A DNA stretch of 32,000 nt from Synechococcus sp. A15-24 (lineage in GTDB: Bacteria > Cyanobacteriota > Cyanobacteriia > PCC-6307 > Cyanobiaceae), in the NCBI RefSeq assembly GCF_014280195.1, contig NZ_CP047960.1, forward strand, positions 2,220,001 through 2,252,000. Reading direction: 5' to 3'. Below the pieces are notes generated by a model that was not told where the DNA came from, did no database searches, and saw nothing but the letters and a program-made list of their open reading frames with translations. The position numbers were made by a program, and so were the translations under genes. Positions 12,477 through 32,000 of this stretch are shown here, in pieces (the first letter of the stretch is position 1; each line of letters opens with the position of its first letter).

Positions 12477-12609
12477 AGCGAATCTCCTCTTCAGCAGATC
12501 TCAGACAAGCAAATCGCGGTGTTCGCGAGCTTGCATTCACGGATAAGAAGTCGCTGGCGCTACCCAAATCACAGGCTGTCAGTGCACTGATGCCTTCAAT
12601 CTCGAAATG

Positions 12610-12625
12610 TGTAGCAATCACAACC
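12610..12625. promoter_or_regulatory. NtcA-like half-consensus site TGTAGCAATCACAACC (GTA-N8-AAC)
   Basis: Lies in the divergent region between the symporter operon and the ATP-grasp gene. Shares the GTAGCAA left half with the sites at 5129 and 18334. The right half is degenerate and I found no convincing -10 element. Confidence 0.3.
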
Positions 12626-12674
12626 CGCGGGGCCCTGATCGAGTTTTTGGATGCGCCTATTCATCGTTCAGGCA

Positions 12675-16487: not shown

Positions 16488-16567
16488 CTCCTGGGGCGTG
16501 GCAAAGCCCGAGCTCTGAGATGGTTGTACTGGGGTTATCCGAGCAAAACGGTGACGATGGCAACGGT

Positions 16568-17608
16568 TCAACCACCGAGATAAGCCATTTCGGCATGGGG
16601 CATGGAACCGGTCATCCGCTGGCGCTCCTCGCTGTAACGGTCGTCACGGCGCCGCCAGAGATCAGCAACCAGCCGCAGCAATTCCGCCTCACAGTGCAGA
16701 GCGGGTTTCAGATCAGTCCCCACCGACGCGAAGAGGCAGCGGAACGCCTGTCCATTAGCTGTGACCCGCAGTCGATTGCAATCGCCGCAAAATGGCTCGC
16801 TGATCGAGGCGATCACGCCGAGATGTCCACCACCATCGACGTAACGCCAACGCTGAGCTGTTCCGCCGGTGGGTCGGCCAACTGCCTGAAGCGGCCACCG
16901 TGCCCTGATCCGCGTCACCATCTCCGCCGCTGACAGCACCTGATCCGGCCTCCACTGATTGCGGTTGCCTACATCCATGTACTCAATCAGGCGCAATTCC
17001 ACACCTTGATCACGAGCCAGATCCGCCAGAGGCAGAAGCTGATCCTCATTCACCCCCCGTTGGATCACGGCATTGAGCTTGAGTTCCCCCGCCAAAGGGT
17101 CAAAACCAGCGGAACGAGCCGAAGCCAATCCACCGAGCACCTTCTGCACCAATGACTCCCCCGCTGTGGCAGTTGGTCGTCCTGCCATCCGCGCCACCAC
17201 TGCCCCATCCACGCCATCAAGGCTCACGGTGATGCGATCCAAACCGGCCTGCCTGAGCTCGCGAGCTCGCTGGTCGCTCAGCAAGGTCCCATTGGTGGTG
17301 AGGGCCACCTGCTGAAGACCCTGGAGTGGATCGCCAGGCGTTGCCCGTGCTGCCGCGATTGCCTGCAACAGGGGGAGAAGCCGAGCACTGAGCAACGGCT
17401 CGCCACCGGTGAGCCGCAGGGTGTGAATCCCCAGCCGGCAGGCAACACGAATCAGGCACAGCTGCTGCTCGAGCCTGAGCAAATCCGGCGGATCCTCAAG
17501 ATCCGGACAGCAGTAAGGACAGGCCAGGTTGCAGCGGGCCGTCAACGACAACCGAAGCACTCTCAAAGGCCGCGACCGCTGATCGACAAGCGCTGAAGCT
17601 GGTGTCAT
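16568..17608 (-). CDS. moaA: GTP 3',8-cyclase MoaA (radical SAM)
   Basis: MTPASALVDQRSRPLRVLRLSLTARCNLACPYCCP... contains the CxxxCxxC cluster motif, and the protein ends in the MoaA-typical GG tail. The ATG at 17608 overlaps the mobA stop (ATGA). The track's 17710 start lies inside mobA. Confidence 0.9.
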   Translation of the reverse strand: MTPASALVDQRSRPLRVLRLSLTARCNLACPYCCPDLEDPPDLLRLEQQLCLIRVACRLGIHTLRLTGGEPLLSARLLPLLQAIAAARATPGDPLQGLQQVALTTNGTLLSDQRARELRQAGLDRITVSLDGVDGAVVARMAGRPTATAGESLVQKVLGGLASARSAGFDPLAGELKLNAVIQRGVNEDQLLPLADLARDQGVELRLIEYMDVGNRNQWRPDQVLSAAEMVTRIRARWPLQAVGRPTGGTAQRWRYVDGGGHLGVIASISEPFCGDCNRLRVTANGQAFRCLFASVGTDLKPALHCEAELLRLVADLWRRRDDRYSEERQRMTGSMPHAEMAYLGG

Positions 17609-18180
17609 GCCATCAACGCTGCCAGATCCTCCGGACGGTTGGCATTCAGCAAGGCCTGAGACGGCAGCACCACCGGCCGATGGGGCACCGACGCCAACCA
17701 AGCCATCCAACGCCGTTCACCGCGGGCCAACTGCTCAGCGAGCCTGGTTTGAAACGGTTCTCCCGTTGGAATCACCGCCAGCAATGGCTGCAGGCGCTTC
17801 CCATCCTGGGCAACGGCGATCTGATCAGGCTTCTCATACCAGGCGTTGATCAACTGCTGAAGAACAGCAGCGCTGAGCCGAGGCATGTCGACTGGCAGCA
17901 CCAGCAGAGCTTCAGCAGGGATGCCAGGCAACACGCGGCCGAGAGCCTGAAGCGGCCCCTGCCAGGGCGGTGGCTCCTGCACAACGGTAACGCCGGGGCG
18001 ACCAGCCAGTTGATCCCCATGGGCTGGATGACGGCTGACCACCTGCAACGGCAAGCCGAGAAGTCTCACCTGATCCACCAGGGCGGTTAGCCAGAGCCCT
18101 CCACTGGGGTGCGGCAGCAGAGCTTTGTCCTGACCCATGCGCTGGCTCTCTCCACCGCTGAACAAGCAGGCACACAACAT
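17605..18180 (-). CDS. mobA: Molybdenum cofactor guanylyltransferase MobA
   Basis: MLCACLFSGGESQRMGQDKALLPH... contains the LxGGxSxRMGxDK motif. Alternative starts are at 18207 and 18246. Confidence 0.8.
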   Translation of the reverse strand: MLCACLFSGGESQRMGQDKALLPHPSGGLWLTALVDQVRLLGLPLQVVSRHPAHGDQLAGRPGVTVVQEPPPWQGPLQALGRVLPGIPAEALLVLPVDMPRLSAAVLQQLINAWYEKPDQIAVAQDGKRLQPLLAVIPTGEPFQTRLAEQLARGERRWMAWLASVPHRPVVLPSQALLNANRPEDLAALMA

Positions 18181-18333
18181 CAACGCGCACCGATCTCCAG
18201 CATCCATAGATTCCACTCCAGCAAAACCCATTCCCCGCGGTGACAACCGCTACCAAGCAAAAACTGAACGCGGATGCTGATCAATCGGATAAGCCCAAGC
18301 GATGTTCCGCTGATCACACAAACCCCTCCATTG

Positions 18334-18347
18334 GTAGCAATTCCAAC
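18334..18347 (+). promoter_or_regulatory. NtcA-like site GTAGCAATTCCAAC (GTA-N8-AAC) upstream of nrtP
   Basis: Lies in the mobA/nrtP divergent region, ~125 nt upstream of the nrtP ATG. A weak -10-like TTAACT starts 22 nt downstream (18370-18375). A second GTG-N8-TAC (GTGACAACCGCTAC) sits at 18240-18253. Confidence 0.35.
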
Positions 18348-18464
18348 GAAGTCGTTCCCTGTTGATTGATTAACTGCCCGAGTTAACGGATTTTTTTCGA
18401 CCGTTTCGCCACCCCCGGGCACCCTTTCGTTTTGAAGCCCGCGGTTTCAACATTTCTCCTCTCA

Positions 18465-20006
18465 ATGCTTGGCGACCTCTGGTCGTTCCAGGGCAGGTAC
18501 CGAACCCTTCACCTCACCTGGATCGCCTTCTTCCTGACCTTTGTGGTCTGGTTCAATCTGGCCCCTCTGGCCACCACCGTGAAAGCAGACCTGGGACTGA
18601 CCGTTGGTCAGATCCGGACCGTGGCCATCTGCAACGTGGCCCTCACCATTCCTGCTCGCGTGCTGATCGGCATGCTGCTGGACAAGTTCGGACCCCGGAT
18701 CACCTACTCCTCGATCCTGGTTTTCTCAGCGATTCCTTGCCTGCTGTTTGCCTCCGCTCAGGACTTCAATCAGCTGGTGGTGGCCCGTCTGCTGCTCTCC
18801 ATCGTTGGCGCCGGCTTCGTGATCGGCATCCGCATGGTGGCCGAGTGGTTCCCGCCCAAGGAAATCGGCCTGGCTGAAGGTATCTATGGCGGCTGGGGCA
18901 ACTTCGGCTCCGCCTTCTCCGCTCTCACGATGGTGGCCCTCGCTGGCTTCCTCTCCTTCTCCGGCGGTTTCGAACTGCCCACCGGCGCTGTTCTGAACTG
19001 GCGAGGTGCCATCGCCCTCACTGGCATCGTCTCCGCCGTTTACGGCTTTTTCTACTTCTTCAACGTCACCGACACCCCCCCCGGCAAGACGTATCAGCGC
19101 CCTGAGAAAACCGCAGGCCTGGAAGTCACCTCCATGCGCGACTTCTGGGGTCTACTCGGCATGAACGTGCCCTTCGCAGCCATCCTCTGCGTGCTCTGCT
19201 GGCGTCTCGGCAAGGTGGGCTTCCTTACTTCGTCCACCTACCCACTGGCTCTCGGGGCTGTTGCCGTCTGGTTTGCTTTCCAGACCTGGGGAATCATTCG
19301 CACCAACCGCGACCTGATCCTCGGCAACAAGGTCTACCCCAAGGAAGACCGCTACGAGTTCCGCCAGGTGGCGATCCTCGAGCTCACCTACATCGTGAAC
19401 TTCGGCTCCGAACTGGCCGTGGTTTCGATGCTGCCCACCTTCTTTGAAACCACCTTCGATCTGCCGAAGGCCACCGCCGGAATCCTGGCCTCCTGCTTCG
19501 CTTTCGTGAACCTGGTCGCCCGCCCTGCCGGTGGTCTGATCTCCGACCGCGTCGGCAGCCGCAAGAACACCATGGGCTTCCTCACCGCCGGTCTCGGCGT
19601 GGGCTATCTGGTGATGAGCATGATCAAGCCGGGCACCTTCACCGGCTCCACCGGCATCGCAGTTGCTGTGGTGATCACCATGCTCGCCTCCTTCTTCGTG
19701 CAGTCCGGAGAAGGCGCCACCTTCGCGCTGGTGCCCCTGGTCAAACGTCGTGTCACCGGTCAGGTGGCCGGCCTGGTGGGTGCCTACGGCAACGTTGGTG
19801 CTGTGACCTACCTGACCATCTTCAGCCTCCTGCCGATGTGGATAGGCGGCGGCGGCGAACCCACCCCCGAGGTGATCGCGGCTTCCAACAGCGCCTTCTT
19901 CCAGATCCTGGGCGTGGCCGGTCTGATCGTGGCCTTCTTCTGCTTCTTCTTCCTCAAGGAACCAAAGGGATCCTTCGCGGAACTGCATGAAGGCGAAACC
20001 GCCTGA
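18465..20006 (+). CDS. nrtP: MFS nitrate/nitrite permease NrtP (NapA)
   Basis: MLGDLWSFQGRYRTLHLTWIAFFLTFVVWFNLAPL... is a 12-TM MFS NNP-family sequence located immediately upstream of narB. The track's TTG at 18432 adds 11 residues. Confidence 0.9.
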   Translation: MLGDLWSFQGRYRTLHLTWIAFFLTFVVWFNLAPLATTVKADLGLTVGQIRTVAICNVALTIPARVLIGMLLDKFGPRITYSSILVFSAIPCLLFASAQDFNQLVVARLLLSIVGAGFVIGIRMVAEWFPPKEIGLAEGIYGGWGNFGSAFSALTMVALAGFLSFSGGFELPTGAVLNWRGAIALTGIVSAVYGFFYFFNVTDTPPGKTYQRPEKTAGLEVTSMRDFWGLLGMNVPFAAILCVLCWRLGKVGFLTSSTYPLALGAVAVWFAFQTWGIIRTNRDLILGNKVYPKEDRYEFRQVAILELTYIVNFGSELAVVSMLPTFFETTFDLPKATAGILASCFAFVNLVARPAGGLISDRVGSRKNTMGFLTAGLGVGYLVMSMIKPGTFTGSTGIAVAVVITMLASFFVQSGEGATFALVPLVKRRVTGQVAGLVGAYGNVGAVTYLTIFSLLPMWIGGGGEPTPEVIAASNSAFFQILGVAGLIVAFFCFFFLKEPKGSFAELHEGETA

Positions 20007-20043
20007 TCGTGGTGTCCACGCAGCGCAGTGGTGCTGCATCACG

Positions 20044-20077
20044 GCCCGGAGCTTTGGCTTCGGGCTTTTCTCTTTCG
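20044..20077 (+). terminator. Hairpin plus T-tract between nrtP and narB (intrinsic terminator or attenuator)
   Basis: GCCCGGAGC-TTTG-GCTTCGGGC forms a 9-bp stem (one G-U pair) with a tetraloop, followed by TTTTCTCTTTCG. It starts 38 nt after the nrtP stop and ends 10 nt before the narB ATG. Confidence 0.5.
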
Positions 20078-20086
20078 TAAGCCCTG

Positions 20087-22318
20087 ATGTCTGACGGCCC
20101 CCGCAGTGTTCGCAGCCAGTGCCCCTACTGCGGTGTGGGCTGCGGTCTTGAGCTGCTGCCTCCGGCCGTGAAGGGTCAAGCCGTAAAGCGGGATGCAGAA
20201 GGCAACCCGATGTGGACCGCCCGCGGCGACCGGAAGCACCCCTCCAGCCTTGGCCAGGTGTGCATCAAGGGGGCCACCGTCGGCGAGACCCTGGCCAGGG
20301 GTCGACTGCGACAACCGTTGTTCCGCAGCAAGCTCACGGACGACTTTGCACCGATCAGCTGGGACGACGCCCTCGACAAAATCACCCGACAGATCAAGGC
20401 GAGCGTGGCCCGCCGCGGCAATGCCGATGGCATCGCCATGTACGGCTCCGGGCAGTTCCACACCGAGGATTACTACCTGGCCCAGAAACTGCTGAAAGGC
20501 GCCCTGGGCACCAACAATTTCGATGCCAACTCGCGGCTGTGCATGAGCTCAGCGGTGGCCGGCTACACCCGGAGCCTGGGTTCCGATGGCCCCCCCTGCA
20601 GCTACGACGATCTGGATCACTGCACGGTGGCCTTTCTGATCGGCACCAACACCGCCGAATGCCACCCGGTGCTGTTCCAGCGGCTGCTGAAGCGGAAACA
20701 CAAGAACCCCGGCAGCGTCAAGATCGTGGTGGTGGACCCACGCCGCACCGACACCGCCAAAGCGGCTGATATTCACTTGCCGATTGCACCCGGCAGCGAC
20801 CTTGCCCTGCTGCATGGCATCGCCCACCTGGTGCTGCGGGACAACGGCCAGGATCCGGTCTTCATCGACGACCACACCGAGAACTACGACGCGTTCTTCG
20901 ACGTGGCCGCCCGCTGGACCCCCAGGCGAGTTGCCCTGTTCTGCAACATCCCCGAGAAACGTCTGCGGGACGTGGCGGCTCTGTTTCACCGGCGCCAAAA
21001 GGTGCTGAGTTTGTGGTCGATGGGGGTGAACCAGCGCCGAGAAGGAACGGCCGTGGTGCAAGGCCTGATCAATCTGCATCTGCTCACCGGCCAGATCGGC
21101 AAAGAAGGGGCAGGTCCCTTCTCCCTGACCGGCCAACCCAATGCCATGGGCGGCCGCGAAGCCGGAGGCCTGGCACACCTGCTGCCGGGCTATCGCTTGG
21201 TGGCCAACCCTGAGCACCGCGCCGAGATGGAACAGGCCTGGCAGCTCCCGGCTGGCCAAATCGCCGGCAAGCCTGGACTTGCCGCGTGGCAGCAGGTGGA
21301 AGCGATGGAACGCGGTGACCTTGATCTCTGGTGGGTGGCGGCCACCAACCCGCTGGTGAGCATGCCGGACCTGGATCGGGTCAAACAGGCCATGGGCAAC
21401 TGCCCGTTGGTGGTGGTGAGCGAGGCCTACGCCGATTCAGAAACGTCCCACTACGCCCACCTGCTGCTGCCAGCCGCCCAATGGAGTGAGAAGGCCGGCA
21501 CCATGACCAATTCCGAGCGGCGTGTGACCTTCTGTCCTGCCTACCGCCTTCGCTTCGGGGAAAGTCGTCCGGACTGGGAGGTGTTCGCGGACGTGGGTCG
21601 CCGGTTGGGTTACACCGAGCAGTTCCGCTTCGATTCGGCTGCCGAGGTGTACGCCGAATTCACCCGACTCACCCAGGGACGCCTCTGTGACGTCAGTGGC
21701 CTCAGCCACGAACTGCTCGAGCAAGCGGGGCCTCAGCAATGGCCGTATCCCATGGGCAGCATCCCCAACACAGCAGCCAAACGCCTCTACGAAAACCATC
21801 AGTTCGCGACCCCCAGCGGACGGGCCCGTTTCAGCACCGACCAGCCTTTAGGCCTGGCAGAACCCCCCTGCGACACCTACCCATTGGTGCTGACCGTCGG
21901 TCGATACCTGGGGCAGTGGCACACGATGACCCGGACCGGGAAAGTGGAGCGGCTGATGAAACAGCACCCTGAGCCATTGCTGGAGATTCATCCAAGCGAT
22001 GCCCAGGAACTACAACTGCGCAACGGCGAGCTGGCTGCGGTCAGCTCACGCCGCGGCCACCTTACGGCCACGGTGAAGGTCACCGATCGCATCCGCTGCG
22101 GAACTGTGTTCCTACCGATGCACTGGGGATTCACTCAGGAGAAGGCTTGCGAAGCCAACACGCTGATGCATGACGATGCCTGCCCGGTGTCCAAGCAACC
22201 GGAACTGAAAGCCTGCGCTGTGATCGTGGCGCCGGCGGTCTCCGTGGTGAAACCGGTGGAGCAGGAGAAAGGACACCTGGAGGCACTGCGGCGCCTGCTC
22301 ACCCCAGCACTTCGCTGA
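20087..22318 (+). CDS. narB: Assimilatory (ferredoxin-dependent) nitrate reductase NarB, molybdopterin oxidoreductase
   Basis: 743 aa. The N-terminal CPYCGVGCGLE is a 4Fe-4S motif. Has MopB-family sequence throughout and a C-terminal molybdopterin dinucleotide-binding region (...GTVFLPMHWG...). Confidence 0.93.
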   Translation: MSDGPRSVRSQCPYCGVGCGLELLPPAVKGQAVKRDAEGNPMWTARGDRKHPSSLGQVCIKGATVGETLARGRLRQPLFRSKLTDDFAPISWDDALDKITRQIKASVARRGNADGIAMYGSGQFHTEDYYLAQKLLKGALGTNNFDANSRLCMSSAVAGYTRSLGSDGPPCSYDDLDHCTVAFLIGTNTAECHPVLFQRLLKRKHKNPGSVKIVVVDPRRTDTAKAADIHLPIAPGSDLALLHGIAHLVLRDNGQDPVFIDDHTENYDAFFDVAARWTPRRVALFCNIPEKRLRDVAALFHRRQKVLSLWSMGVNQRREGTAVVQGLINLHLLTGQIGKEGAGPFSLTGQPNAMGGREAGGLAHLLPGYRLVANPEHRAEMEQAWQLPAGQIAGKPGLAAWQQVEAMERGDLDLWWVAATNPLVSMPDLDRVKQAMGNCPLVVVSEAYADSETSHYAHLLLPAAQWSEKAGTMTNSERRVTFCPAYRLRFGESRPDWEVFADVGRRLGYTEQFRFDSAAEVYAEFTRLTQGRLCDVSGLSHELLEQAGPQQWPYPMGSIPNTAAKRLYENHQFATPSGRARFSTDQPLGLAEPPCDTYPLVLTVGRYLGQWHTMTRTGKVERLMKQHPEPLLEIHPSDAQELQLRNGELAAVSSRRGHLTATVKVTDRIRCGTVFLPMHWGFTQEKACEANTLMHDDACPVSKQPELKACAVIVAPAVSVVKPVEQEKGHLEALRRLLTPALR

Positions 22319-22766
22319 AGGCAGCATCCAGATTGTGGTGGTCATGACCCGGCCGCACCAGCTTGCACAGAGCGAAACGATCCAGCTCAGTGACCTGGGC
22401 CCATTGCTCAGGCGTCAACTCCACACCCCGGGCCACCGCAGCGCTGTGAATCTCTGCCGGTAAAACGGACTGCTGCTGCCAGGCTGCGTCCACAGCCGGC
22501 GGCAAATCCTTCACCACACCATCAGCCATCCCCTCGGTGAGATCCCGCAGGTGCTTCCGGAGTTGATCGAGCGCATTTGCAGCGTCCGACCAATCCACCA
22601 GCTCTTGCCGCTGGTTCTGCGTGAGTGCCAACCAGTGGCTGAGCTTGAGCTTCACACCGGCCAGATCCAACTTGCGGCGCACGCAAAGGGGAATGCAACG
22701 CCAGGTGCCGATGAAATCCTGCTCGAAAGCAAAACAATGGCTGGATGAATCAGAGGTGCTGGCCAT
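22299..22766 (-). CDS. narM: Nitrate reductase-associated protein (likely NarM-like)
   Basis: MASTSDSSSHCFAFEQDFIGTWRCIPLCVRRKLDLAGVKLKLSHWLAL... matches the small 'nitrate reductase associated' family found beside cyanobacterial narB. The ATG at 22766 follows the track's TTG. Its 3' end overlaps the narB 3' end by 20 nt. Confidence 0.6.
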   Translation of the reverse strand: MASTSDSSSHCFAFEQDFIGTWRCIPLCVRRKLDLAGVKLKLSHWLALTQNQRQELVDWSDAANALDQLRKHLRDLTEGMADGVVKDLPPAVDAAWQQQSVLPAEIHSAAVARGVELTPEQWAQVTELDRFALCKLVRPGHDHHNLDAAFSEVLG

Positions 22767-23041
22767 CAACGAAGCCGGCGAACGGTGTCAATGATGACAA
22801 CGACCAATCAGGAAATCAGAGATGTTCACCTCGTTACACATCCACGTCCGTGCGATTCGCCCTCTCCCTCGGAATGTTGCTTGGCATGTCCCACGGTTGG
22901 GTGACGGCTGAGGGCCAAGCAAACGACAATTCAGGCCTTGCAGTCGTAAGAACCGTTAAATCGACGACAAGTTTTTCTCCATTCAGTAGCGGTCAACACC
23001 AATTTTTTCCATACTGAAGATCAATACGAGAGTTTTGAGTT

Positions 23042-23350
23042 TTGACCAACAGCATCATCTCCGCTGGTCGCAGCCCGATCACCCTGGCCGCCGGCTTTCT
23101 CGGAGCCTTCATCGTTGGCTCCCTGGCCGTCCAGCTGGTGCGCAGCCAAACCGCCACCATGTCATCGGGCGTCGCCGCTGTGGAGCCGGTGATCGCGGGC
23201 CACGCTGCCCTCTGGGCTCCTTTGGCTGAGCGTGACATCGTCAGCGCCAACACAGGCGCAACGGCCCAACCGGCTGCTGCCATCCAACCCGCCGTTAAGC
23301 CGGTTGTCGGCTCCGAGGCCACCCTCTGGGCCCCCTTCGGCGAGCGTTAA
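23042..23350 (+). CDS. Hypothetical membrane-anchored protein with duplicated LWAPxxER motif
   Basis: TTG start. (M)TNSIISAGRSPITLAAGFLGAFIVGSLAVQLVRSQ... forms one TM helix, followed by ...HAALWAPLAERD... and a C-terminal ...EATLWAPFGER. Third-codon positions are strongly G/C from 23042 onward, which supports coding. I recognised no family. Confidence 0.45.
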   Translation: MTNSIISAGRSPITLAAGFLGAFIVGSLAVQLVRSQTATMSSGVAAVEPVIAGHAALWAPLAERDIVSANTGATAQPAAAIQPAVKPVVGSEATLWAPFGER

Positions 23351-23388
23351 TCTCACAGCCCATCAGCCGGCCCACATAGGGTGCCGGC

Positions 23389-24087
23389 ATGGGGATTCAG
23401 CGGCGTCAATTCCTCCAAACAACGGGCGGTCTGGCCTTGGCCGCCCTGATGCGTGTCCAGCCTGTTGAGGCGGCAGAGGAGGGGTTCTGCGTCCCGGAGG
23501 ATCCACTCCAGGCCCTGATGGCGGGGAACCGCCGGTTTGCCGAGGCCTGGCAACGGGCCGACCAGGAGAACAAAACGACACTCCGAGCGGCGAATCCCGA
23601 CCCGCGCTGCTTCCACTCCCCTAGGGCTTTGGCCACCAGCCAAAATCCCTGGGCCACGGTGCTCACCTGCTCTGATTCACGGGTGTCGCCGAGCTGGGTG
23701 TTCGACACCACCCCTGGCGAGCTGTTCGTGATCCGCAACGCCGGCAACACCGCCTTCACCGAAGCCATTGCCTCCGTTGAATACAGCGTCAGCGTTCTCA
23801 AAACGCCGCTGCTGATGGTGATGGGACACAGCGGCTGCGGAGCCGTCACCGCAGCGATGGGCACCAATCCGCTGACCCCTTCCCTGGACCGGCTGATCCA
23901 ACCCATCCGGGAGAACATCAGCGGCAGCAGCGATCTGGAAGAAGCGGTGAAGCGCAACGCCCTGGCCAGCGCCTCCACGTTGGTTCAACGCAGCGCCGTT
24001 CTGGCCGACGCCAAAACCAGCGGTGCGCTGAAACTGGTGGTGGGTTGCTTCCAACTCAACAGCGGTGTTGTCACCTTGATCGAATGA
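23389..24087 (+). CDS. Beta-class carbonic anhydrase with twin-arginine (Tat) signal peptide
   Basis: [28 protein letters not shown]|AEE has an RRxFLx Tat motif, a hydrophobic core and a VEA-A cleavage site. The beta-CA zinc motifs CSDSR ([10 protein letters not shown]) and HxxC (GHSGCGAV) are present. Confidence 0.85.
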
Positions 24088-24560
24088 CGCAAAACCTGAG
24101 TCATCTGAACCAGCAAGGCGAGGTTCACATGGTGGATGTGGGGGACCGTCCGGCGACCCAGCGCGAAGCCCATGCCCGTGGAGCCATTCGCATGGACGCC
24201 TCAACCCTCAGCCTGATCCAGCGGGGCGAGACACCAAAAGGAGATCTTCTCGCGGTCGCACGGGTGGCAGCGATCCAGGCGGCCAAACGCACCTGGGAAC
24301 TGATTCCCCTGTGCCATCCCCTGCCACTCAGTGGCATGGATGTGACGATCGACGCCGACGCATCGCTGCCTGGCCTGGTCGTCCACTGTCGTTGTCGCAC
24401 CACAGGCCAGACCGGGGTGGAAATGGAAGCGATGACGGCGGTGTCTGTGGGGCTGCTGACCCTTTACGACATGCTCAAGGCGGTCGATCCACCCATGACG
24501 ATCGAGGCGATCCAGCTGGAGTTCAAGGAAGGAGGGCGGAACGGTGTCTGGAAGCGCTGA
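24084..24560 (+). CDS. moaC: Cyclic pyranopterin monophosphate synthase MoaC
   Basis: [33 protein letters not shown]...IPLCHPL...[11 protein letters not shown]... The ATG at 24084 overlaps the CA stop (ATGA). The track's 24045 start lies inside the CA gene. Confidence 0.9.
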
Positions 24561-25794
24561 GCCCTATGGACGCGAAGGGCTCCCCCTGGAGGAGGCACGT
24601 CGACGGGTTCTGGCGGCGCTTCAGCCGATCACAGCCAGCAACACAGTGCCGCTGCAGCAGGCCCTCGGCCGGGTGAGCGCAGCGGCTGTGCTCGCCAGCG
24701 AGGCCGTTCCGGGGTTTAGAGCCTCGATCATGGATGGCTATGCCCTGGGGCAGAGCCACCAGCCCAAACCTGGGGACACCTGGCAACTGAAGGGACGCTC
24801 CGCCGCCGGCCAACCCTTCAGCGGGACCCTGACCAACGGCGATGCGATCCGCATCCTCACCGGCGCTCCACTGCCGGACGGTGCCGGCTGGGTACTGCCC
24901 CAGGAACTGATCTCCGTTGACGGCAGCAGCCTGCAGCTAGCGAAAGAAGCGTCGGATCGTTCCTGGGTTCGCCCCGAAGATGAGGAATGCCGGCCTGGGG
25001 ACCTACTTCTGGCCGCTGGACAGCGACTGGGTGCCGCCGATCTCGCACGCCTCGCCGGCTGCGGCATCGCCGACCTAACCGTTGCGCAACAACCACGCAT
25101 CGGGCTGCTGATCAGCGGGGACGAGCTGGTGCCACCAGGAACAGCGCGGCAACCCGGTGCCATCTGGGAGAGCAACGGCACGCTTCTGGAGACGATGCTC
25201 CGGGCCCTCGGTCAATCGGTGACCCAGCGACAGGTGGTGGCCGATCAACCCGACGCCCTGCGCCAGGCCCTGCTGGATCTGGCACATGACTGCGACGTGG
25301 TGGTGAGCACCGGCGGCGTCTCCGCCGGCGACAGCGACTGGATCCGGCCGCTGGTGGCGGAGCTGGGTGCCGTGGACTTCTGGAAACTGTTCTTGCGCCC
25401 GGGGCGCCCCTTCGCCTTCGGCAGCATCGGTGACGGCGTGCCGTTTTTCGGACTGCCGGGCAATCCCGTGGCGGCGGCGGTCACCGCCCTGCAACTGCTC
25501 TGGCCCGCCCTGCAGGTTCTGGAGGGCCAGAGCGAACCGGGGCTGTTCCCCCGGGTGATGGTGGAACTCGCCGACCCGTTGTCCCGCCGACCGGGACGGC
25601 CGGAACTGGCCCGGGCCCGCCTCGACACCAACGCCGCAGGAACACTTCTGGCACGGGTGGATGGCTCACAGGCTTCGTCCCGGATCGGTTCGCTGCAACA
25701 CGCCGATCTGCTGTTGGAACTGCCGGCAGAAGCAGGCCCACTCGAAAGCGGCACCCGTCTCTGGGCCCAGCTGATCCGTCAGCGGATTTTCTAA
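24544..25794 (+). CDS. moeA: Molybdopterin molybdenumtransferase MoeA
   Basis: 416 aa. Contains ...[16 protein letters not shown]..., ...[15 protein letters not shown]... and ...[10 protein letters not shown]... The GTG start overlaps the moaC 3' end by 17 nt. Confidence 0.9.
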
Positions 25795-26588
25795 GCCGCA
25801 GCAGGCCGAAAGCGGCGGCGCTCCCAGGCCATAAGCTGGCCCGATGCATCGAAATGGATACTGATCTGCTGAAACAGCGCATCGCCGAGACACCCACCGA
25901 TCTCGAGGCTGAAGGGCTCACTGGGGAGCTCACTGGGCACGGAGAACACCAAGCCGTCGAGCATCACAGCTGAGCAGTCGTTGTGCAACAGCTGGCTTGG
26001 ATCGAACAGCATCGGAGCTGCGTCCTCAGGCTTGCCGTTCACCCCCGCTTGCGGCCTGAGCATCTGCCGCTCGCCACTCCATCCATGTACCGGCGCCAGC
26101 AGGGCTTCGGGTGTCCCGCATGCGGGACGGTCGGGTTCGGGATCAGGACTGTTCAGGCAACGGAAACCCACCGCCCCAACACGCTGTAAAAGCCAATTGC
26201 CGTCGAGCGGTTCCCAGAGCAGCACCAGCATCGAGCGGGAACGTCCGCAGAACAGGTTGATCTCATGGCCGAAGCGGGGACGCTCGGGATCAAGCCCCCG
26301 GCTCGACTGACCTCCCGCCCCGGGGAACTGCCAACAGCCTCCACCAGCGTTGTAGGTGGCTCGGCTGATGGGATAGGTGGCCTGACCACCGGGGGCAAAG
26401 GCCAGACCCGAGCCATCCCACACCCCGTGGTCATCGTCGGAAAAGGAAATCGCGTAGGTGGTGGGGTCAATCCGACGGGTCGGACGCTGGAGATCCAGCC
26501 GACCGCTGCCATCCCGCTCAAACCAATGGCCACAGCCCTGCCAGTGACCGGCGAAATTGCGGCTGTTGAGGGTCCATTGATCGGTCAT
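25791..26588 (-). CDS. Conserved hypothetical protein, possibly DUF3598-like
   Basis: 265-aa ORF with good G/C content at third-codon positions. The N-terminus MTDQWTLNSRNFAGHWQGCGHWF resembles the W..F..N.G.W.G pattern I associate with cyanobacterial DUF3598. That family call is from memory only. Confidence 0.45.
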   Translation of the reverse strand: MTDQWTLNSRNFAGHWQGCGHWFERDGSGRLDLQRPTRRIDPTTYAISFSDDDHGVWDGSGLAFAPGGQATYPISRATYNAGGGCWQFPGAGGQSSRGLDPERPRFGHEINLFCGRSRSMLVLLWEPLDGNWLLQRVGAVGFRCLNSPDPEPDRPACGTPEALLAPVHGWSGERQMLRPQAGVNGKPEDAAPMLFDPSQLLHNDCSAVMLDGLVFSVPSELPSEPFSLEIGGCLGDALFQQISIHFDASGQLMAWERRRFRPAAA

Positions 26589-26647
26589 GTCCGTGACGGC
26601 ATGAATCGGTCGATCTCCTTAGCGTCGCCCCAACAGCCATCCCAGCC

Positions 26648-27511
26648 ATGGACCTGACGATCGTTGGCTGCGGCTATGTGGGGCTTGCCCTGGCGGAGCG
26701 GCTGCAACCAAGACGTCCCCAGCTGAAGCTGACGCTCACCACCACCAGCAGAGAACGGCTGGCGCAACTCAGCCCTCTGGCCGATCGGGTGGAGCTGTGC
26801 GATGCCACCGACCCCGTGCAATTGCTGGCCGCCCTGCGGCAGAGCAGCAGCGCCGTGTTCTGTCTTGGGCCTAAAGGAGATCGCCAGGTGGATGCCAACG
26901 GCTACCGCCACACCTTCATCGACAGCTTCTGCTGCCTGACGTCGCTGTTGCCACAACTCCCGGAACTGCGGCAGATCGTCTACACGGGCAGTTGCTCGGT
27001 GTACGGCGATGCCGAGGGGGACTGGGTGGATGAGCAAACACCGCCCGCACCAGACCGCGGCCATGGCGATGTTCTGCTGGAAGGCGAACAACTGCTCAGC
27101 GGCATCAGCGACCGGCGGGTATGCATCCTGCGCCTCGGGGCGCTCTATGGCCCTGGCCGCGATCTCGATCGACGGCTGCGCGGGCTCGCCGGACTGGAAC
27201 GCCCTGGCAGCGGAGCGACTTTCAGCAACTGGCTGCATGTGGCGGATGCCGCCGGTGCCCTGGAAGCAGCTCTCGATGCTGAATGGGCCGGTCTGGTGAA
27301 CGTGGTCAACGACGAGCCGATTCAGCTGCGAGACCTGGTAGGGCGCAGCCTGCAGCGCCAGGGCCTGGCCCCCGTGCGCTGGCTGGGGCAGGACAAACCG
27401 GGTTCAGGGGGCCGACGGATTCGCAACACCCGGCTCAAACAGCTGGGCTACCAACTGCAGCACCCGCGCCTTGATCAGAGTGGCGTGTTGGCCACCAGCC
27501 AGGTGCCCTGA
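26648..27511 (+). CDS. NAD(P)-binding Rossmann-fold protein, epimerase/dehydratase (atypical SDR) family
   Basis: MDLTIVGCGYVGLALAERL contains the GxGxxG motif, and ...YTGSCSVYGD... is an SxxVYG-type motif. 287 aa. Confidence 0.7.
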   Translation: MDLTIVGCGYVGLALAERLQPRRPQLKLTLTTTSRERLAQLSPLADRVELCDATDPVQLLAALRQSSSAVFCLGPKGDRQVDANGYRHTFIDSFCCLTSLLPQLPELRQIVYTGSCSVYGDAEGDWVDEQTPPAPDRGHGDVLLEGEQLLSGISDRRVCILRLGALYGPGRDLDRRLRGLAGLERPGSGATFSNWLHVADAAGALEAALDAEWAGLVNVVNDEPIQLRDLVGRSLQRQGLAPVRWLGQDKPGSGGRRIRNTRLKQLGYQLQHPRLDQSGVLATSQVP

Positions 27512-27903
27512 CCAGCGCACCACTCCCGCTTCCAGAACGGGGCGTGGTGCTTGAGTTGCTCCAACAACGCGGCTGAGCAGCGCTGCGCCGCTCCACGACG
27601 ATCGGCCTGCACCGCCACCAGCACGATCGGTTCACCGGGGGCAAGCTTGCCCACGCGATGCAACACCAAAATCGGCCCCGCCTGGTGCTCCTGCTGCAGA
27701 CGCTGGGCCATGGCTGTGATCTGACGTTCGCAGAGGCCGGGGAAGTGCTCCAGCTCCAGCGCCTCCAGAGGCCTGCCATCCATCGTGGTGGGCCGCACCC
27801 GACCGATGAAGATGGCCTCGGCCGCGGCATCCCCACACCAGAGCGCAAGCTGCTGCCACGGATCAAAGGGATCCGGGCACACCTCCACACGGCAACCGGT
27901 CAT
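27475..27903 (-). CDS. moaE: Molybdopterin synthase catalytic subunit MoaE
   Basis: 142 aa. ...IFIGRVRP...LELEHFPGLCERQI...VLHRVGKLAPGEPIVLVAV...HHAPFWKRE... is MoaE-typical. Starts 3 nt after the moaD stop. Confidence 0.88.
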   Translation of the reverse strand: MTGCRVEVCPDPFDPWQQLALWCGDAAAEAIFIGRVRPTTMDGRPLEALELEHFPGLCERQITAMAQRLQQEHQAGPILVLHRVGKLAPGEPIVLVAVQADRRGAAQRCSAALLEQLKHHAPFWKREWCAGQGTWLVANTPL

Positions 27904-27906
27904 GGT

Positions 27907-28137
27907 TCATCCCCCCGTGAACGGTGGCAGAAAGGCCAGCTCATCTCCAGCCTGCAACGGCTGATTGGCACCGACCAACTCCTGGTTCACCGCAATGCTG
28001 ATGCCCTCGAGCGGACCAAGATCCAACTGGTTCCAGACCTCACGGGCCGTCGAAACGCCTGAAGTGAACGGAAGGGAACGCTCGCCCCAACCGGAGCGTT
28101 CGCGCAGGGATGCGAACAGCAACACCCGGAGCACCAT
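27907..28137 (-). CDS. moaD: Molybdopterin synthase sulfur-carrier subunit MoaD
   Basis: 76 aa, MVLRVLLFASLRERSGW...GDELAFLPPFTGG, ending in the obligatory C-terminal Gly-Gly. This is only the 3' 231 nt of the 251-aa track ORF. The rest of that ORF is antisense to moaB. Confidence 0.88.
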   Translation of the reverse strand: MVLRVLLFASLRERSGWGERSLPFTSGVSTAREVWNQLDLGPLEGISIAVNQELVGANQPLQAGDELAFLPPFTGG

Positions 28138-28188
28138 GACCTTCCCATCTGGAGCGGTTCTAGCGTCCGAAGGCTCCGCCGCTGTGCC

Positions 28189-28686
28189 ATGGCCCTGTCC
28201 ATCGCCCTGCTCACCATCTCCGACACACGCAGCCTGGCGGACGACAGCAGCGGAGATCAGCTGCAGCGCAGCCTTGAAGCCGCCGGCCATCGCCTTCACG
28301 AGCGACAACTCTGCCCGGATGATCGTTATCAGATCCGCCGTGAACTGAGCCGCTGGATCGCCGATCCCGCGGTTGATGTGATGATCACCAGCGGCGGCAC
28401 CGGACTCACCGGCCGTGATGGCACCCCTGAAGCGGTGGTACCGCTGCTGGACAAAACAATCGAGGGATTCGGGGAACTGTTCCGTGTGCTCTCCTTCGAG
28501 AGCATTGGCACCAGCACGCTGCAAAGCCGCTGCCTTGCCGGCGTGGCCAACGGCACCTTTGTGTTTGTGCTGCCGGGATCTCTGGATGCGGTAACCACCG
28601 CTTGGGACAAGCTCATCCGTGCTCAGCTTGATGAACAGACCCGTCCCTGCAACCTGGCCCAACTGCGGGCTCGCTTGAAGGAATAA
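28189..28686 (+). CDS. moaB: Molybdenum cofactor biosynthesis protein MoaB (MoaB/Mog family)
   Basis: 165 aa. MALSIALLTISDTRS...VDVMITSGGTGLTGRDGTPEA...FVFVLPGS... Divergent from moaD across a 51-nt spacer. Confidence 0.88.
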   Translation: MALSIALLTISDTRSLADDSSGDQLQRSLEAAGHRLHERQLCPDDRYQIRRELSRWIADPAVDVMITSGGTGLTGRDGTPEAVVPLLDKTIEGFGELFRVLSFESIGTSTLQSRCLAGVANGTFVFVLPGSLDAVTTAWDKLIRAQLDEQTRPCNLAQLRARLKE

Positions 28687-28707
28687 AGCGGGATCGAGGG
28701 GAGCTGT

Positions 28708-29496
28708 TCAGAACGGAATCGGCATCGTGACCGCTGCCGGTGAGGGCCTGCAAGCTTCAACCTGCTGATCAATCACCTCACCCACCACAACGATCGAGGG
28801 CGACTTGAAGGCTTCGGCTCGGCATTGATCGGCAACGTCTACCAAGGTGGCTTTGAGGCAGCGTTGCCCCGCCACCGTCCCCTGCTGGATCACCGCCACG
28901 GGGGTTGTCGCGGCCAAACCACCCGCCATCAGCTCCTTTGCGATCCGGGGCAGGTTATGTAGCCCCATGTAGATCACCAATCCGTCACTGGCCGTGGCCA
29001 AAGCGCGCCAATCCACGGAGGGACGGCGCTTGTCGATTTCCTCATGACCGGTGACGAAGGTCACCGATGAGCCCGCCCGCCGGTGGGTGACGGGAATCCC
29101 GGCGTAGGCAGGGGCGGCAATACCAGCGGTGACACCAGGCACCACTTGAACAGGGATGTTTCGCTCCGCCAGGTAAGCCGCTTCTTCCCCTCCACGACCA
29201 AACAGGAAAGGATCACCCCCCTTCAAACGCACCACCGTGCTGTGCTTCTGGGCCATTTCAACGAGCACGGCATTCGTGCTGGGTTGTGGCACCGAATGAT
29301 GTCCGCGACGCTTGCCGACAAAACGGCGCTTACAGGACGCCGGCACAAGATCCAGCACTTCTCTGGGCACCAGCGAGTCGTACACCAGGGCATCGCACTG
29401 GCTCAGCAGCCGATGCGCCTTCAGCGTGAGCAATTCGGGATCGCCGGGACCGGCTCCCACCAGATAAACGGTTCCGGTTTGTTCAGCGGTGGTCAC
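28708..29496 (-). CDS. cobA: Uroporphyrinogen-III C-methyltransferase (siroheme branch)
   Basis: 262 aa. ...TVYLVGAGPGDPELLTLKAHRLLSQCDALVYDSLV...RLKGGDPFLFGRGGEE... The ATG overlaps the upstream stop (ATGA-type 4-nt overlap). Confidence 0.9.
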   Translation of the reverse strand: MTTAEQTGTVYLVGAGPGDPELLTLKAHRLLSQCDALVYDSLVPREVLDLVPASCKRRFVGKRRGHHSVPQPSTNAVLVEMAQKHSTVVRLKGGDPFLFGRGGEEAAYLAERNIPVQVVPGVTAGIAAPAYAGIPVTHRRAGSSVTFVTGHEEIDKRRPSVDWRALATASDGLVIYMGLHNLPRIAKELMAGGLAATTPVAVIQQGTVAGQRCLKATLVDVADQCRAEAFKSPSIVVVGEVIDQQVEACRPSPAAVTMPIPF

Positions 29497-30155
29497 GGCA
29501 GAGAAACAAGCAGATCGATCAGGGCCTGGCGGGTGGGGGGATGCTCCAACAGAGGAGGCAATCCACCAGCTTCGCTCAATGCCTCCGTCATGCGGTTCGG
29601 GGCGAGGGTTAACGGGAGTGGGCGGGCGCAGGGATGGCGCTGCTGATACTTGGGCCAGGCATCAAAGGCAGCCAATGGCAAGGCCAGGCGAGAGGAGAGC
29701 ATCGCGAGGAAGCGATCCGCCACTCCCGGGCGCAGGGGGTGGTGCACCAGCACGGCATCACGGCGCTCAGACACCGGCAGTGCTGAGATCACCGCGTTCC
29801 ACCAGGTGATCCAGGAGCCCAGAAAGGGAAGCAAACGCACGCTGGCCCCGGCGGCATGAAGCCTGTTGCGAATCGCCGGCACGTCCGTTCGGGCATGCGC
29901 TCCAGGCAACAACAGCAACGGAATAATCCAAGAGGGTTGGGGAAGCGCCGACACGGGTTGTTCAGCCGTCAGCACCTCCAGCTGAACGGGCGCCGATCGC
30001 CGCTGGGCCAGGAGATCCGGCAGGGAGGCCAAGCAGTCGGGAACGACACCGCCACTACGGCCATGCACCACCAGATGCAACCCTTGACGCCCCCGATCGG
30101 AAGCGTCATTCCGTAGCAATGGCCACGGATCAAAAAAAGAGCTATCTGATGTCAT
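29493..30155 (-). CDS. cbiX: CbiX/SirB-like sirohydrochlorin chelatase
   Basis: ...LHLVVHGRSGG... and ...IIPLLLLPGAHARTDVPAI... resemble the two CbiX half-motifs. Coupled to cobA and divergent from nirA, which fits a role in siroheme supply. I prefer the ATG at 30155 over the track's 30200. Confidence 0.55.
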   Translation of the reverse strand: MTSDSSFFDPWPLLRNDASDRGRQGLHLVVHGRSGGVVPDCLASLPDLLAQRRSAPVQLEVLTAEQPVSALPQPSWIIPLLLLPGAHARTDVPAIRNRLHAAGASVRLLPFLGSWITWWNAVISALPVSERRDAVLVHHPLRPGVADRFLAMLSSRLALPLAAFDAWPKYQQRHPCARPLPLTLAPNRMTEALSEAGGLPPLLEHPPTRQALIDLLVSLP

Positions 30156-30715
30156 CGAGAAGTAATGACCTGGGGTAAGTACATGGCACCTCGCCAACAA
30201 AACGAACGTGCATCATTGGAAAGTCGTTTCTACCGGGCACAGACACGTCGGCGCTTTGACCTAAGCTCTACATTAATTGAATTTAAGAGTCCAAGTATGC
30301 GCAAAAGGGCAAAGCCGTACGACAAGAGTTACAGACGGCAATACGAGCGGAATCGTAATTCCATCAACAGAACAACTTTTGAGTACGAACTAGAAAAGGA
30401 CGTAGCCGCTTAGAAGCCGGTTTGGCAAATGATCTGTTCGGGAGCTGCCCGCATGCTGAACAGAGTTTTACATCAGATTTAAATCTATAAAATGAATAGC
30501 ATAGATCGCACAGGAAAAAGAATATAAAATCAACAGGGAAGCTGGGAGTCTAAAAAACCAACATTGTGCTAATATATTTCTTAAGTAGCTCGAGAAATCG
30601 AAGGTTACTTCACTATCGCACGCTTTCATTATTACGTAGCGACAAAGGTCCCCGGGCCGATTAAACTGATCTACTACATTTTTTGATCGATCAGTCCGCC
30701 CTATTTTCATGAATC

Positions 30716-32000
30716 ATGACCATCAAAAACCAAATCAACCCCTACTTCGCAGAAAAAAAATTGAATAAGATTGAAAAAAGTAAGTTGGAAAAAGATGGGC
30801 TTTTAGTAGGAAGCGAAATCGAAAAGTTTGCAAAAATTGGGTGGGAAAATATGGATGAAACCGATTTAAAACTCCGTCTGAAATGGTATGGAATGTTCTG
30901 GCGTCCGAAAACACCCGGAAAATTCATGCTAAGACTTAGAATACCAAATGGTGTATTGACATCCAATCAAATACGAGTTGTAGCTTCAATAGTTGAACGT
31001 TATGGAGAAAATGGAAGCTGCGACATCACCACAAGGCAAAACCTGCAACTTAGAGGAATACTATTATGCGATCTTCCCGAGATCCTTAGAAGACTGCGTG
31101 AAGCCGGACTAAGTAGCGTCCAGTCGGGCTTTGATAATCCACGAAACGTAACCGGCAATCCACTCGCAGGAATAGATCCGAACGAAATCGTCGATACGAG
31201 ACCTTACACAACTAAATTGCAGAACTTTCTCACAAATAATTGTGAGGGAAATTCGGAATATTCCAACCTACCGAGAAAATGGAACACAGCAGTCGCAGGG
31301 TCTAAAGACAATTTCCTTCTTCACAACGACATAGTGTTTCATCCCGTTGAGAATAACGGCGTGATGGGTTTTAGCATCTGGATTGGAGGGATTTTATCTC
31401 CACAGATGAACGCATATGCATTTCCCATGAATGTATGGGTATTACCTGACGAGATCTGCAACATTTTGGATACTGTGATTCGTCTCTGGAGAGACAATGG
31501 AGAAAGAGAAAAGAGAACCAAAGGACGTTTCCGCATGTATCTCGATGAGATAGGGCACGAAGAATTCCGCAGCCAAGTGGAAAAACTGTACGGAACACTC
31601 ACTCCCGATCCAGGCTCAATATTCGAAAACTCTCCACGCTCTCACTTCGGCATTAATCAGCAGAAACAAGCCGGACTTTATTTTGCTGGCATACACGTGC
31701 CGGTCGGTCGCCTCACGGCAGAGGATCTACAAGATATCGCAACAGCGAGTCTCAAATATGGAAATGGAGAAATTAGACTCACAGAAGACCAAAATATAAT
31801 TATCACAGGTCTTACGAGTGAAAAAGTTGAAGAATTAAAGACTGATACATTAATGCAGCGTTTCCCCCTAGCACCTAGCAATATTTCAGCAGGAACAGTG
31901 TCCTGCACGGGAAATACGTACTGTAGTTTTGCGCTTACCAACACTAAAGACCAAGCCTTAAAAGCAGCAAAGGAACTTGACGAGGAGTTGAACCTACCTG
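30716..32000 (+). CDS. nirA: Ferredoxin-nitrite reductase NirA (3' end cut by window edge; 428 codons present)
   Basis: Absent from the ORF track. My translation from ATG 30716 (an in-frame TGA lies two codons upstream, at 30710-30712) stays open to the window end: MTIKNQINPYFAEKKLNKIEKSKLEKDGLLVGSEIEKFAKIGWENMDETDLKLRLKWYGMFWRPKTPGKFMLRLRIPNGVLTSNQIRVVASIVERYGENGSCDITTRQNLQLRGI...NPRNVTGNPLAGID...GTVSCTGNTYCSFAL... The last stretch is the siroheme/4Fe-4S Cys motif. Confidence 0.92.
   Translation, partial: MTIKNQINPYFAEKKLNKIEKSKLEKDGLLVGSEIEKFAKIGWENMDETDLKLRLKWYGMFWRPKTPGKFMLRLRIPNGVLTSNQIRVVASIVERYGENGSCDITTRQNLQLRGILLCDLPEILRRLREAGLSSVQSGFDNPRNVTGNPLAGIDPNEIVDTRPYTTKLQNFLTNNCEGNSEYSNLPRKWNTAVAGSKDNFLLHNDIVFHPVENNGVMGFSIWIGGILSPQMNAYAFPMNVWVLPDEICNILDTVIRLWRDNGEREKRTKGRFRMYLDEIGHEEFRSQVEKLYGTLTPDPGSIFENSPRSHFGINQQKQAGLYFAGIHVPVGRLTAEDLQDIATASLKYGNGEIRLTEDQNIIITGLTSEKVEELKTDTLMQRFPLAPSNISAGTVSCTGNTYCSFALTNTKDQALKAAKELDEELNLP

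Follow-up and report, generated by a model that had tools for sequence, protein, structure and literature searches.

A low-GC nirA at the left edge of a clade III genomic island in Synechococcus sp. A15-24

We analysed 32,000 nucleotides (nt) of Synechococcus sp. A15-24 (RefSeq assembly GCF_014280195.1, contig NZ_CP047960.1, positions 2,220,001 to 2,252,000; hereafter the window), which end within a nirA gene (ferredoxin-nitrite reductase) of unusually low G+C (GC) content. This end of the window is the left edge of an already described low-GC island of about 15 kb in clade III strains. The chromosomal slot from cbiX to cynS carries one of two very different alleles in backgrounds that are otherwise close relatives, and we think it probable that the low-GC allele reflects block-wise allelic (xenologous) replacement, with exchange by homologous recombination continuing. 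The island itself is known; what is added here is the precise position of its breakpoints, a further variant whose cbiX is chimeric, and the lack of detectable amelioration.

The GC cliff and the island behind it

Positions 30130–32000 have a GC content of 0.425, about nine standard deviations (sd) below the mean of 1871-bp windows over the remaining sequence (mean 0.622, sd 0.022, minimum 0.577). A single change point fitted by maximum likelihood falls at 30129, the steepest fall (400 bp each side) is at 30128, and the cliff is well beyond chance. Similarity to relatives breaks at a coinciding position: sliding identity to three clade II-like genomes (L003, L004 and L067) is 0.82–0.98 until 30139 and at most 0.6 from 30140. 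An earlier reading of this DNA from its letters alone (hereafter the sequence-only reading) had described an abrupt cliff at about 30130, and its counts on single 60-nt lines (41/60, 27/60, 21/60 and 20/60) are all reproduced exactly. Elsewhere in the window, minor dips to 0.53–0.56 (500-bp windows 5001–5500, 10501–11000, 12501–13000, 18001–18500 and 22501–23000) are probably intergenic spacers. The features on either side of the cliff are as follows.

30716 to 32000, plus strand: nirA (ferredoxin-nitrite reductase), first 428 of 513 codons; NF007125, PF03460, PF01077
30129 to 30140, no strand: junction, from the GC change point at 30129 and the similarity collapse at about 30140
30156 to 30715, no strand: low-GC intergenic region (GC 0.43), part of the island, unalignable to the clade II spacer save for the nirA leader
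29493 to 30155, minus strand: CbiX-like gene of 220 amino acids, from its open reading frame (ORF); the label is weak (PF01903 sub-threshold)
28708 to 29496, minus strand: cobA (uroporphyrinogen-III C-methyltransferase type, TP_methylase), from its ORF and an A15-28 orthologue with PF00590

The first gene of the island is nirA (GC 0.426), whose frame begins with the ATG at 30716 and stays open for 428 codons up to the end of the window. Its product scores 724.9 bits against the NF007125 equivalog (cut-off 594) despite being clipped by the window end, and it matches PF03460 (E = 1.8e-40) and PF01077 (E = 3.1e-35), the NIR_SIR and NIR_SIR_ferr domains, so the fragment is unambiguously predicted to be a ferredoxin-nitrite reductase. 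Four Cys residues serve as ligands of the siroheme/[4Fe-4S] centre in this family. Invariant C397 and C403 (CTGNTYC) lie inside the window, and the other two (CPNxC, alignment columns 449 and 453) fall past base 32000 and were found in aligned full-length relatives. The NirA proteins of A18-46.1 (98.8% amino-acid identity), A15-28 (98.6%), RS9915 (97.4%) and WH 8103 (97.2%), which we take to be clade III strains, are very similar to that of the window, and its 90% cluster has 163 members, drawn from many metagenomes.

The composition of nirA differs from that of its neighbours at the codon level: GC at codon positions 1/2/3 is 0.49/0.38/0.40, versus 0.71/0.49/0.74 in six neighbouring genes. 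The sequence-only reading had judged AGA, TTA and ATA to be rare in the surrounding genes, and these codons are indeed nearly missing there and frequent in nirA: AGA makes up 11 of 25 Arg codons (4 of 169 in the six neighbours), TTA 8 of 45 Leu codons (2 of 265) and ATA 10 of 30 Ile codons (0 of 64). It had also called the protein rich in Lys, Asn and Ile, with the bias reaching the amino-acid level, and this too is borne out. The FYMINK fraction is 0.297, versus 0.229 in the clade II orthologue (the closest high-GC one), and Ile (7.0% vs 4.0%), Asn (7.9% vs 6.3%) and Lys (6.1% vs 5.1%) are all raised, while Arg content is unchanged at 5.8%.

When the GC profile is extended beyond the window, as the sequence-only reading had proposed, low GC runs for about 15 kb in relatives. 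In A15-28, RS9915, WH8102 and a single-cell amplified genome (SAG), it stays at 0.29–0.47 from the cbiX/nirA spacer to cynS (0.27–0.48 in 300-bp windows) and is back to about 0.6 at trpD. Overall, the island has a GC of 0.39 against 0.62–0.64 in the host, and its spacers and non-nitrogen genes are AT-enriched too. Its gene order is nirA, a weak alpha/beta-hydrolase-like gene, genes for an ABC-3 permease, an ATPase and a ZnuA-like binding protein (the three forming a ‘second znuABC’, synw2479-2481), a cobW-family GTPase gene, a WD40 protein gene, two small ORFs, cynD, cynB, cynA, tatA, a HEAT-repeat gene and cynS. The sequence-only reading had offered two scopes for the replaced DNA, of which ‘everything beyond about 30150’ stands and nirA alone does not. 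Composition deviates between sharp borders (30129 on the left, cynS/trpD on the right), and the distribution is patchy between conserved flanks: clade III strains, a related SAG and one clade II-like background carry the island, and close relatives without it keep cobA–cbiX and cynS–trpD.

The same arrangement occurs in independently obtained sequences. Across the cliff, the window is colinear with the closed genomes of A15-28 (94.7% over 8.3 kb, and 98–100% near the junction) and RS9915 (94.4% over 11.3 kb). Both junctions of the island are seen in the SAG (L090); WH8102 and the metagenome contigs L081 and L082 contain the island and its right edge; and the nirA of WH 8103 was deposited separately in GenBank (AAC17122).

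Several papers, Tetu et al. among them, have already described the block. In WH8102, assigned to clade III in the literature, the low-GC block (L080, about 7200–21680) coincides with SYNW2477–SYNW2491, described as an ‘island region’ (PMC3744912). This is apparently the same region as Syn_GI013, a clade III-specific island with cynABD (Dore et al. 2020, PMC7522525), and cynABD is found mostly in clade III (Dore et al. 2023, PMC10119275). Like the window, SYNW2477–SYNW2491/Syn_GI013 starts at nirA, and the two agree in genes, order and composition; the CynA of WH8102 falls into the same 90% cluster as the island CynA. Unlike the WH8102 island, the window comes from another clade III strain and shows the first 1.9 kb, and its NirA is closest to those of A18-46.1 and A15-28. 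In the literature, we found no explicit statement that the island nirA is a divergent xenologue.

Expression of the WH8102 genes has been studied as well. NirA (SYNW2477, the orthologue of the window gene) is more abundant on nitrate, and its transcript has been measured by quantitative PCR (PMC6716455); synw2479-2481 are constitutively expressed (Mikhaylina et al. 2022, PMC9337993). SYNW2477–SYNW2491 are co-upregulated as a whole block by the intercalator ethidium bromide (PMC3744912) and are also co-upregulated in a knockout mutant (PMC2673484), which hints at domain-level regulation of AT-rich DNA.

Alternative contents of one slot

In seven genomes or metagenome-assembled genomes (MAGs), the left flank from moaC to cbiX is 86–92% identical to the window at the nucleotide level. 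In six of them (L001, L003, L004, L006, L009 and L067), NirA groups with that of the clade II strains WH8109 and PROS-U-1, the assignment of L009 being by an equally close match, not by clustering. The nirA of these six has a GC of 0.59–0.60 and a third-position GC (GC3) of 0.74–0.79, and it is 79–80% identical to the clade III allele in amino acids and about 71% in nucleotides. After nirA, their slot contains a formate/nitrite-transporter gene (PF01226), a HEAT-repeat gene, cynS and trpD; compared with clade III, the HEAT protein is 56–58% identical and cynS 90–92%. Apart from that cynS, no znu, cobW, WD40 or cyn genes lie within 10 kb of nirA in the six genomes.

Close relatives thus have either of two strongly divergent alleles in the cbiX–cynS slot, and the clade III allele differs both by replacement (nirA and the HEAT-repeat gene) and by about 11 kb of extra cargo. 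The synteny comparison proposed by the sequence-only reading came out as a replacement would have it: relatives whose left flank is 91–92% identical hold a nirA of 0.60 GC and different downstream genes. Its claim that foreign-type low-GC DNA occupies an otherwise conserved position agrees with the clade II-like slot and the break in similarity at about 30140. It had also held that the same low-GC nirA in relatives would argue for vertical inheritance; such sharing is seen at the level of clade III and not in the sister clade.

A second variant of the island is present on Tara and other metagenome contigs (L085–L089), and its NirA forms a cluster of 92 members that are 83–84% identical to the window NirA. 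This variant has the same order as the clade III island (nirA-znuBCA-cobW-WD40-x-x-cynDBA-tatA) and a GC of 0.389, and it is 76.7% identical to that island in nucleotides, with CynA at 93%. On the left it adjoins a flank 96% identical to that of the clade II-like L003 and L004, and its breakpoint lies inside cbiX, at about window position 29720, roughly 430 bp further left. The cbiX gene of this variant is chimeric: its C-terminal 87 amino acids are 95–98% clade II-like, and its N-terminal 134 amino acids have a lower GC and are just 55–60% identical to any sampled Synechococcus cbiX. Two host backgrounds therefore carry the island with two distinct junctions, which is the signature expected of homologous recombination via conserved flanks. 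Since a donor-type half of cbiX sits beside nirA, the source of the block would itself have had cbiX adjoining nirA, i.e. picocyanobacterial synteny.

Further loci show other contents at this position. A third, partial variant occurs on the Synechococcus SAG contig L055 (NirA 88%). The seventh genome with a similar left flank (L022) has a different, lower-GC nirA, and AG-670-B23, whose flanks are about 89% identical to the window, has a third kind of nirA (GC 0.47; 87–88% amino-acid identity to clade II). GC drops of 0.05–0.16 restricted to the nirA–cynS slot (cbiX to trpD) are seen in many marine Synechococcus (L022, L014, L054, L026 and others), and intermediate drops over exactly this slot are seen in AG-670-B23, MIT S9503, MIT S1220 and the MAG EAC81. 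The nirA–cynS slot looks like a general hotspot for allele exchange.

Age, origin and competing explanations

The island is present in every clade III strain sampled. When A15-28 is compared with the SAG L090, the island is 86–94% identical per segment (90.9% overall) and the flank 92%; because island and flank are equally diverged, this suggests that the island was already in the common ancestor of the two. A recent or strain-specific event finds no support in this co-divergence or in the presence of the island throughout clade III. Between A15-28 and RS9915, the island is 96–98.4% identical in nucleotides versus 92.5% for the flank, which points to later exchange of the island or to a flank made mosaic by recombination.

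Both island variants have a GC of 0.385–0.389 while being 23% diverged from each other, so the low-GC state is older than their split. To see in which direction composition is moving, substitutions were polarised by parsimony with a close outgroup (alignment of L077, L078, L080, L090 and L085, plus flank), which is a rough approach in which some changes may be recombination imports. The island (GC 0.387) has 238 GC-to-AT versus 233 AT-to-GC changes, and the flank (GC 0.64) has 188 versus 70. Island and flank share the same per-site bias of about 1.5–1.6 and the same equilibrium GC of about 0.38–0.40, which is the GC of the island. As far as this rough estimate goes, the island is at compositional equilibrium, with no detectable amelioration to host GC. 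A distant variant-2 outgroup gave an apparent AT-to-GC excess, which we discounted as a probable parsimony misinference.

The window NirA is 72–79% identical to that of Synechococcus 5.1 and 65–69% to that of Prochlorococcus in the subset compared (65–72% over all Prochlorococcus-labelled sequences). In neighbour-joining trees, a phylogeny of the kind the sequence-only reading had called for, its clade forms a long branch inside Synechococcus, with bootstrap support of 92% for amino acids and 53% after Dayhoff-6 recoding. NirA nests there even though it shares an AT-rich composition that would be expected to pull it toward Prochlorococcus, so its affinity is with Synechococcus. Ordinary 5.1 clades are 77–94% identical to each other in NirA, and clade II is 88–89% identical to clades I and V but 79% to clade III. 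The window NirA is 72–79% identical to all of these clades and therefore departs from the species relationship. Clade III NirA being farther from clade II than clades I and V are may reflect gene-tree discordance, but its neighbour-joining placement within Synechococcus has low support and the compositional bias is strong. The NirA of KORDI-100 is another outlier (62–71% identical to every Synechococcus and Prochlorococcus NirA compared, branching outside the main Synechococcus group) and may be another displaced allele.

Our preferred explanation is that a conserved slot between cobA/cbiX and cynS/trpD hosts alternative contents. In sister lineages these are a high-GC nirA, the formate/nitrite-transporter gene, the HEAT-repeat gene and cynS. 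In clade III, about 11 kb of additional genes (the hydrolase-like gene, the second znuABC, cobW, WD40, two small ORFs, cynDBA and tatA) sit between a low-GC nirA and a HEAT gene that are both divergent. Together with its nirA, this block would have been put in by homologous recombination via the conserved flanks and would still be exchanged between Synechococcus lineages in the same way. The outcome would be an in-place xenologous (allelic) replacement of nirA within a larger cassette whose low-GC state is presumably old and stable, predating the split of the variants and resting at compositional equilibrium. We favour this explanation because it accounts for breakpoints that coincide in composition and similarity, for the additional cargo, for a cbiX that is chimeric in another host background, and for the pattern of NirA distances. 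From these we infer recombination as the mechanism and acquisition as a block, with a donor that would be an unsampled Synechococcus-like lineage or a long-lived low-GC island or mobile gene pool.

Several observations weigh against block-wise replacement. The divergence of the island variants (about 77% nucleotide identity) resembles that of the right flank between clades II and III (trpD, 67–84%). Long vertical residence followed by homogenisation of the left flank could therefore give the same breakpoints. NirA, at 79% to clade II, is also near trpD (80%) and ppk (83%), and the NirA trees are neighbour-joining only, in which its position within Synechococcus lacks resolution. No donor was found: CobW is a flat 67–70% identical to its next-best relatives (the named ones being Prochlorococcus and Cyanobium NAT70), and CynA is 71–77% identical to HL Prochlorococcus-type sequences and 70–72% to Cyanobium. 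In addition, no mobility genes, tRNA or att-like features mark the island. There is no tRNA in the window, A15-28 (L077), WH8102 (L080), the SAG (L090) or L003, and none of the called genes has an integrase domain scoring above threshold; no search for direct repeats was made.

This last point also separates the island from the flexible islands described for marine picocyanobacteria (Dufresne et al. 2008, PMC2441476). It is like them in atypical composition, restricted distribution, nutrient-uptake cargo and a conserved slot. Unlike them, it contains nirA, a gene that relatives have at the same position and that is here displaced in place; it has no tRNA, integrase or phage remnant; and its GC is at equilibrium without a sign of amelioration.

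Vertical descent with local compositional decay is the strongest competitor, though we consider it rather unlikely. Here, the slot would be ancestral to clade III and at AT-biased mutational equilibrium, and the cliff would show where the recombining core stops rather than where an import starts. Without recombination with relatives lacking the island, the slot would experience no GC-biased gene conversion or selection for GC, and the core would be kept GC-rich and homogenised. The shared substitution spectra fit this idea, since the equilibrium GC they imply is that of the island. The left flank fits too: the moaC–cbiX segment is about 92% identical to clade II-like genomes, compared with 67–84% for trpD beyond the right edge of the island, a contrast suggestive of gene flow between clades, and the left flank is a mosaic among clade III. 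Some GC dip is present in the nirA–cynS slot of every marine Synechococcus examined, and both NirA and its leader are Synechococcus-like. Against decay, a GC3 shift from about 0.78 to about 0.38 at full equilibration needs several substitutions per site, the inserted genes are missing from sister genomes, and parsimony polarisation is biased under skewed composition, the distant outgroup having given another ratio. Moreover, low GC was in place before the two variants separated, at a depth similar to that of the divergence between clades II and III, and yet nirA is high-GC in clade II. Low- and high-GC nirA alleles are then both older than the lineage split, and at least one allelic replacement is therefore needed even under decay.

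In a related reading with similarly modest odds, the cliff may be the border of two regimes, a core of about 0.63 GC that recombines across clades (under gene conversion or selection) and a recombination-poor block, with nirA captured by it, that was already at the host's mutational equilibrium of about 0.39 before clades II and III separated and has stayed there. The block may also act as a single regulatory domain, in view of the co-induction of SYNW2477–SYNW2491 by ethidium bromide and in a knockout mutant.

Import of the block from a low-GC Prochlorococcus, the donor guessed at by the sequence-only reading, is very unlikely. A parallel is an HLII-type Prochlorococcus SAG contig with the order znuB-zur-znuC-znuA-cobW-WD40-x-x-cynABD-cynS-tatA, i.e. 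the same module content as the island: it is low in GC and shares cobW, WD40, two small ORFs, cynABD, cynS and tatA (CynA 71–75%, CynB 75–76%, CynD 65%, CobW 67–69% and WD40 47% identical). In one Prochlorococcus SAG, cobW-WD40 follows nirA at a distance of a few kb, the island GC of 0.39 and the NirA FYMINK fraction are Prochlorococcus-like, and the best non-island CynA matches (71–77%) are HL Prochlorococcus-type. Unlike the HLII region, however, the island has cynABD inverted relative to cobW-WD40, a znuABC that is not orthologous (25–31% to the Prochlorococcus one), and a nirA that is not of Prochlorococcus type, being closer to Synechococcus (72–79% vs 65–72%) and nested within it. The donor half of the variant-2 cbiX is 55–60% identical to Synechococcus cbiX, clade III cbiX is 34% identical to that of Prochlorococcus with no Prochlorococcus locus among its best matches, and CobW is equidistant from named Prochlorococcus and Cyanobium NAT70. 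A Prochlorococcus donor is thus unsupported for nirA and cbiX, and only CynABD has Prochlorococcus as nearest neighbour, at 65–77%.

Phages were considered as vectors and rejected. A cyanophage nirA has been reported from oxygen-deficient zones (PMC9983427) and resembles the island gene in being a horizontally carried low-GC nirA. Island DNA had no match in 50,697 phage records, in which the matches to NirA were sulfite-reductase-like genes (26–28%). An exact-pattern scan of IMG/VR was empty, and a profile scan found three viral nirA that are just 60–63% identical to the island one, farther than Prochlorococcus.

Selection for low nitrogen cost or special expression of a nitrogen-stress gene as the cause of low nirA GC is highly improbable. 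It would suit the fact that nirA GC is 0.03–0.16 below flank GC in almost all marine Synechococcus loci examined, but low GC spans 15 kb including spacers and zinc genes, Arg holds steady while the nitrogen-containing Lys and Asn rise, and the boundary coincides with a similarity breakpoint. Finally, a contig wrongly combining DNA of a high-GC and a low-GC organism through chimeric assembly or mis-binning, which the sequence-only reading wanted excluded, has only the abruptness of the GC change in its favour and can be dismissed, the same junction being present in two closed isolate genomes and one SAG, with WH8102, the metagenome contigs and the separate AAC17122 deposit in agreement. The earlier interpretation is therefore partly supported: it was right in kind (a foreign-type, in-place replacement) and wrong in scope, and its donor is unsupported.

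Flanking sequences and significance

Two further features lie between cbiX and nirA, in a spacer that is 93–100% identical in A15-28 and RS9915.

30596 to 30715, plus strand: nirA leader with three hairpins, from alignment, structure and a shuffling test
30165 to 30413, plus strand: small basic ORF of 82 amino acids, between cbiX and nirA

The leader is about 120 nt long, lies directly 5' of the nirA ATG, and is common to the low-GC and high-GC Synechococcus alleles (besides the window, the set comprises L001, L003–L006, L010, L011, L014, L015, L017, L022, L026, L032, L054, L064, L078, L085 and L090). Its middle hairpin is GGTC-YYCG-GGCC in about half of the sequences, and its third is a TGATC...GATCA inverted repeat. 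In the alignment, 87.9% of cells are paired, nine pairs have compensatory changes on both sides, and none of 500 shuffles matched the observed score. No Rfam family matched at E <= 1 in 29000–32000, leader included. The leader could be an RNA element or a set of palindromic protein-binding sites. The cbiX–nirA spacer has no canonical NtcA box (GTA-N8-TAC), just degenerate GT-N10-AC sequences, e.g. GTAATTCCATCAAC at 30355.

The small ORF is ended by a TAG in the window, where A15-28 has TTG, and it is 105 amino acids long in the SAG L090. The variant-2 island has a 99-amino-acid version, with a conserved C-terminus (ELKKD[IL]AA[ST]K...RMLN). Searches of Pfam and NCBIfam with the small ORF gave no match. 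Possibly it is a genuine small gene that has been inactivated in the A15-24 strain, or not a gene at all.

To the left of the junction, the genes are of host type. The GC of cobA is about 0.62, and its product is 94–98% identical to those of clade II relatives. The CbiX-like gene is the last host-type gene, its 5' end abutting the breakpoint, and its product is 84–92% identical to those of relatives. The sequence-only reading had called this gene cbiX: the gene is present, and the name comes from a sub-threshold PF01903 match (E = 0.007). Its start is probably the ATG at 30155, with the TTG at 30200 an over-extension, as orthologues are called at 220 amino acids.

The nitrate/molybdopterin cluster at 20500–30100 is a recombination mosaic. 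The window is RS9915-like at 20500–24500 (94–98%, versus 65–89% to A15-28) and A15-28-like from 26000 on (95–100%). Within the first of these segments, A15-28 has a carbonic-anhydrase-like (Pro_CA) gene (L077:2611-3369, equivalent to window 23389–24087) that shares 45–49% identity with its counterparts in RS9915 and in the clade II-like genomes and 68% with that of UW140. The window carries the RS9915-type allele, and the A15-28 gene looks like the product of a further swap of alleles in place within this cluster.

The island is a nutrient cassette for nitrite reduction, putative zinc uptake and cyanate uptake, which would be packaged and swapped as a unit between open-ocean Synechococcus lineages. 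Such swapping bears on the niche adaptation of clade III to nutrient-poor waters. It also has practical consequences: judged by composition, this nirA allele would be mis-binned or called Prochlorococcus, and surveys that use nirA as a marker gene will not track host phylogeny.

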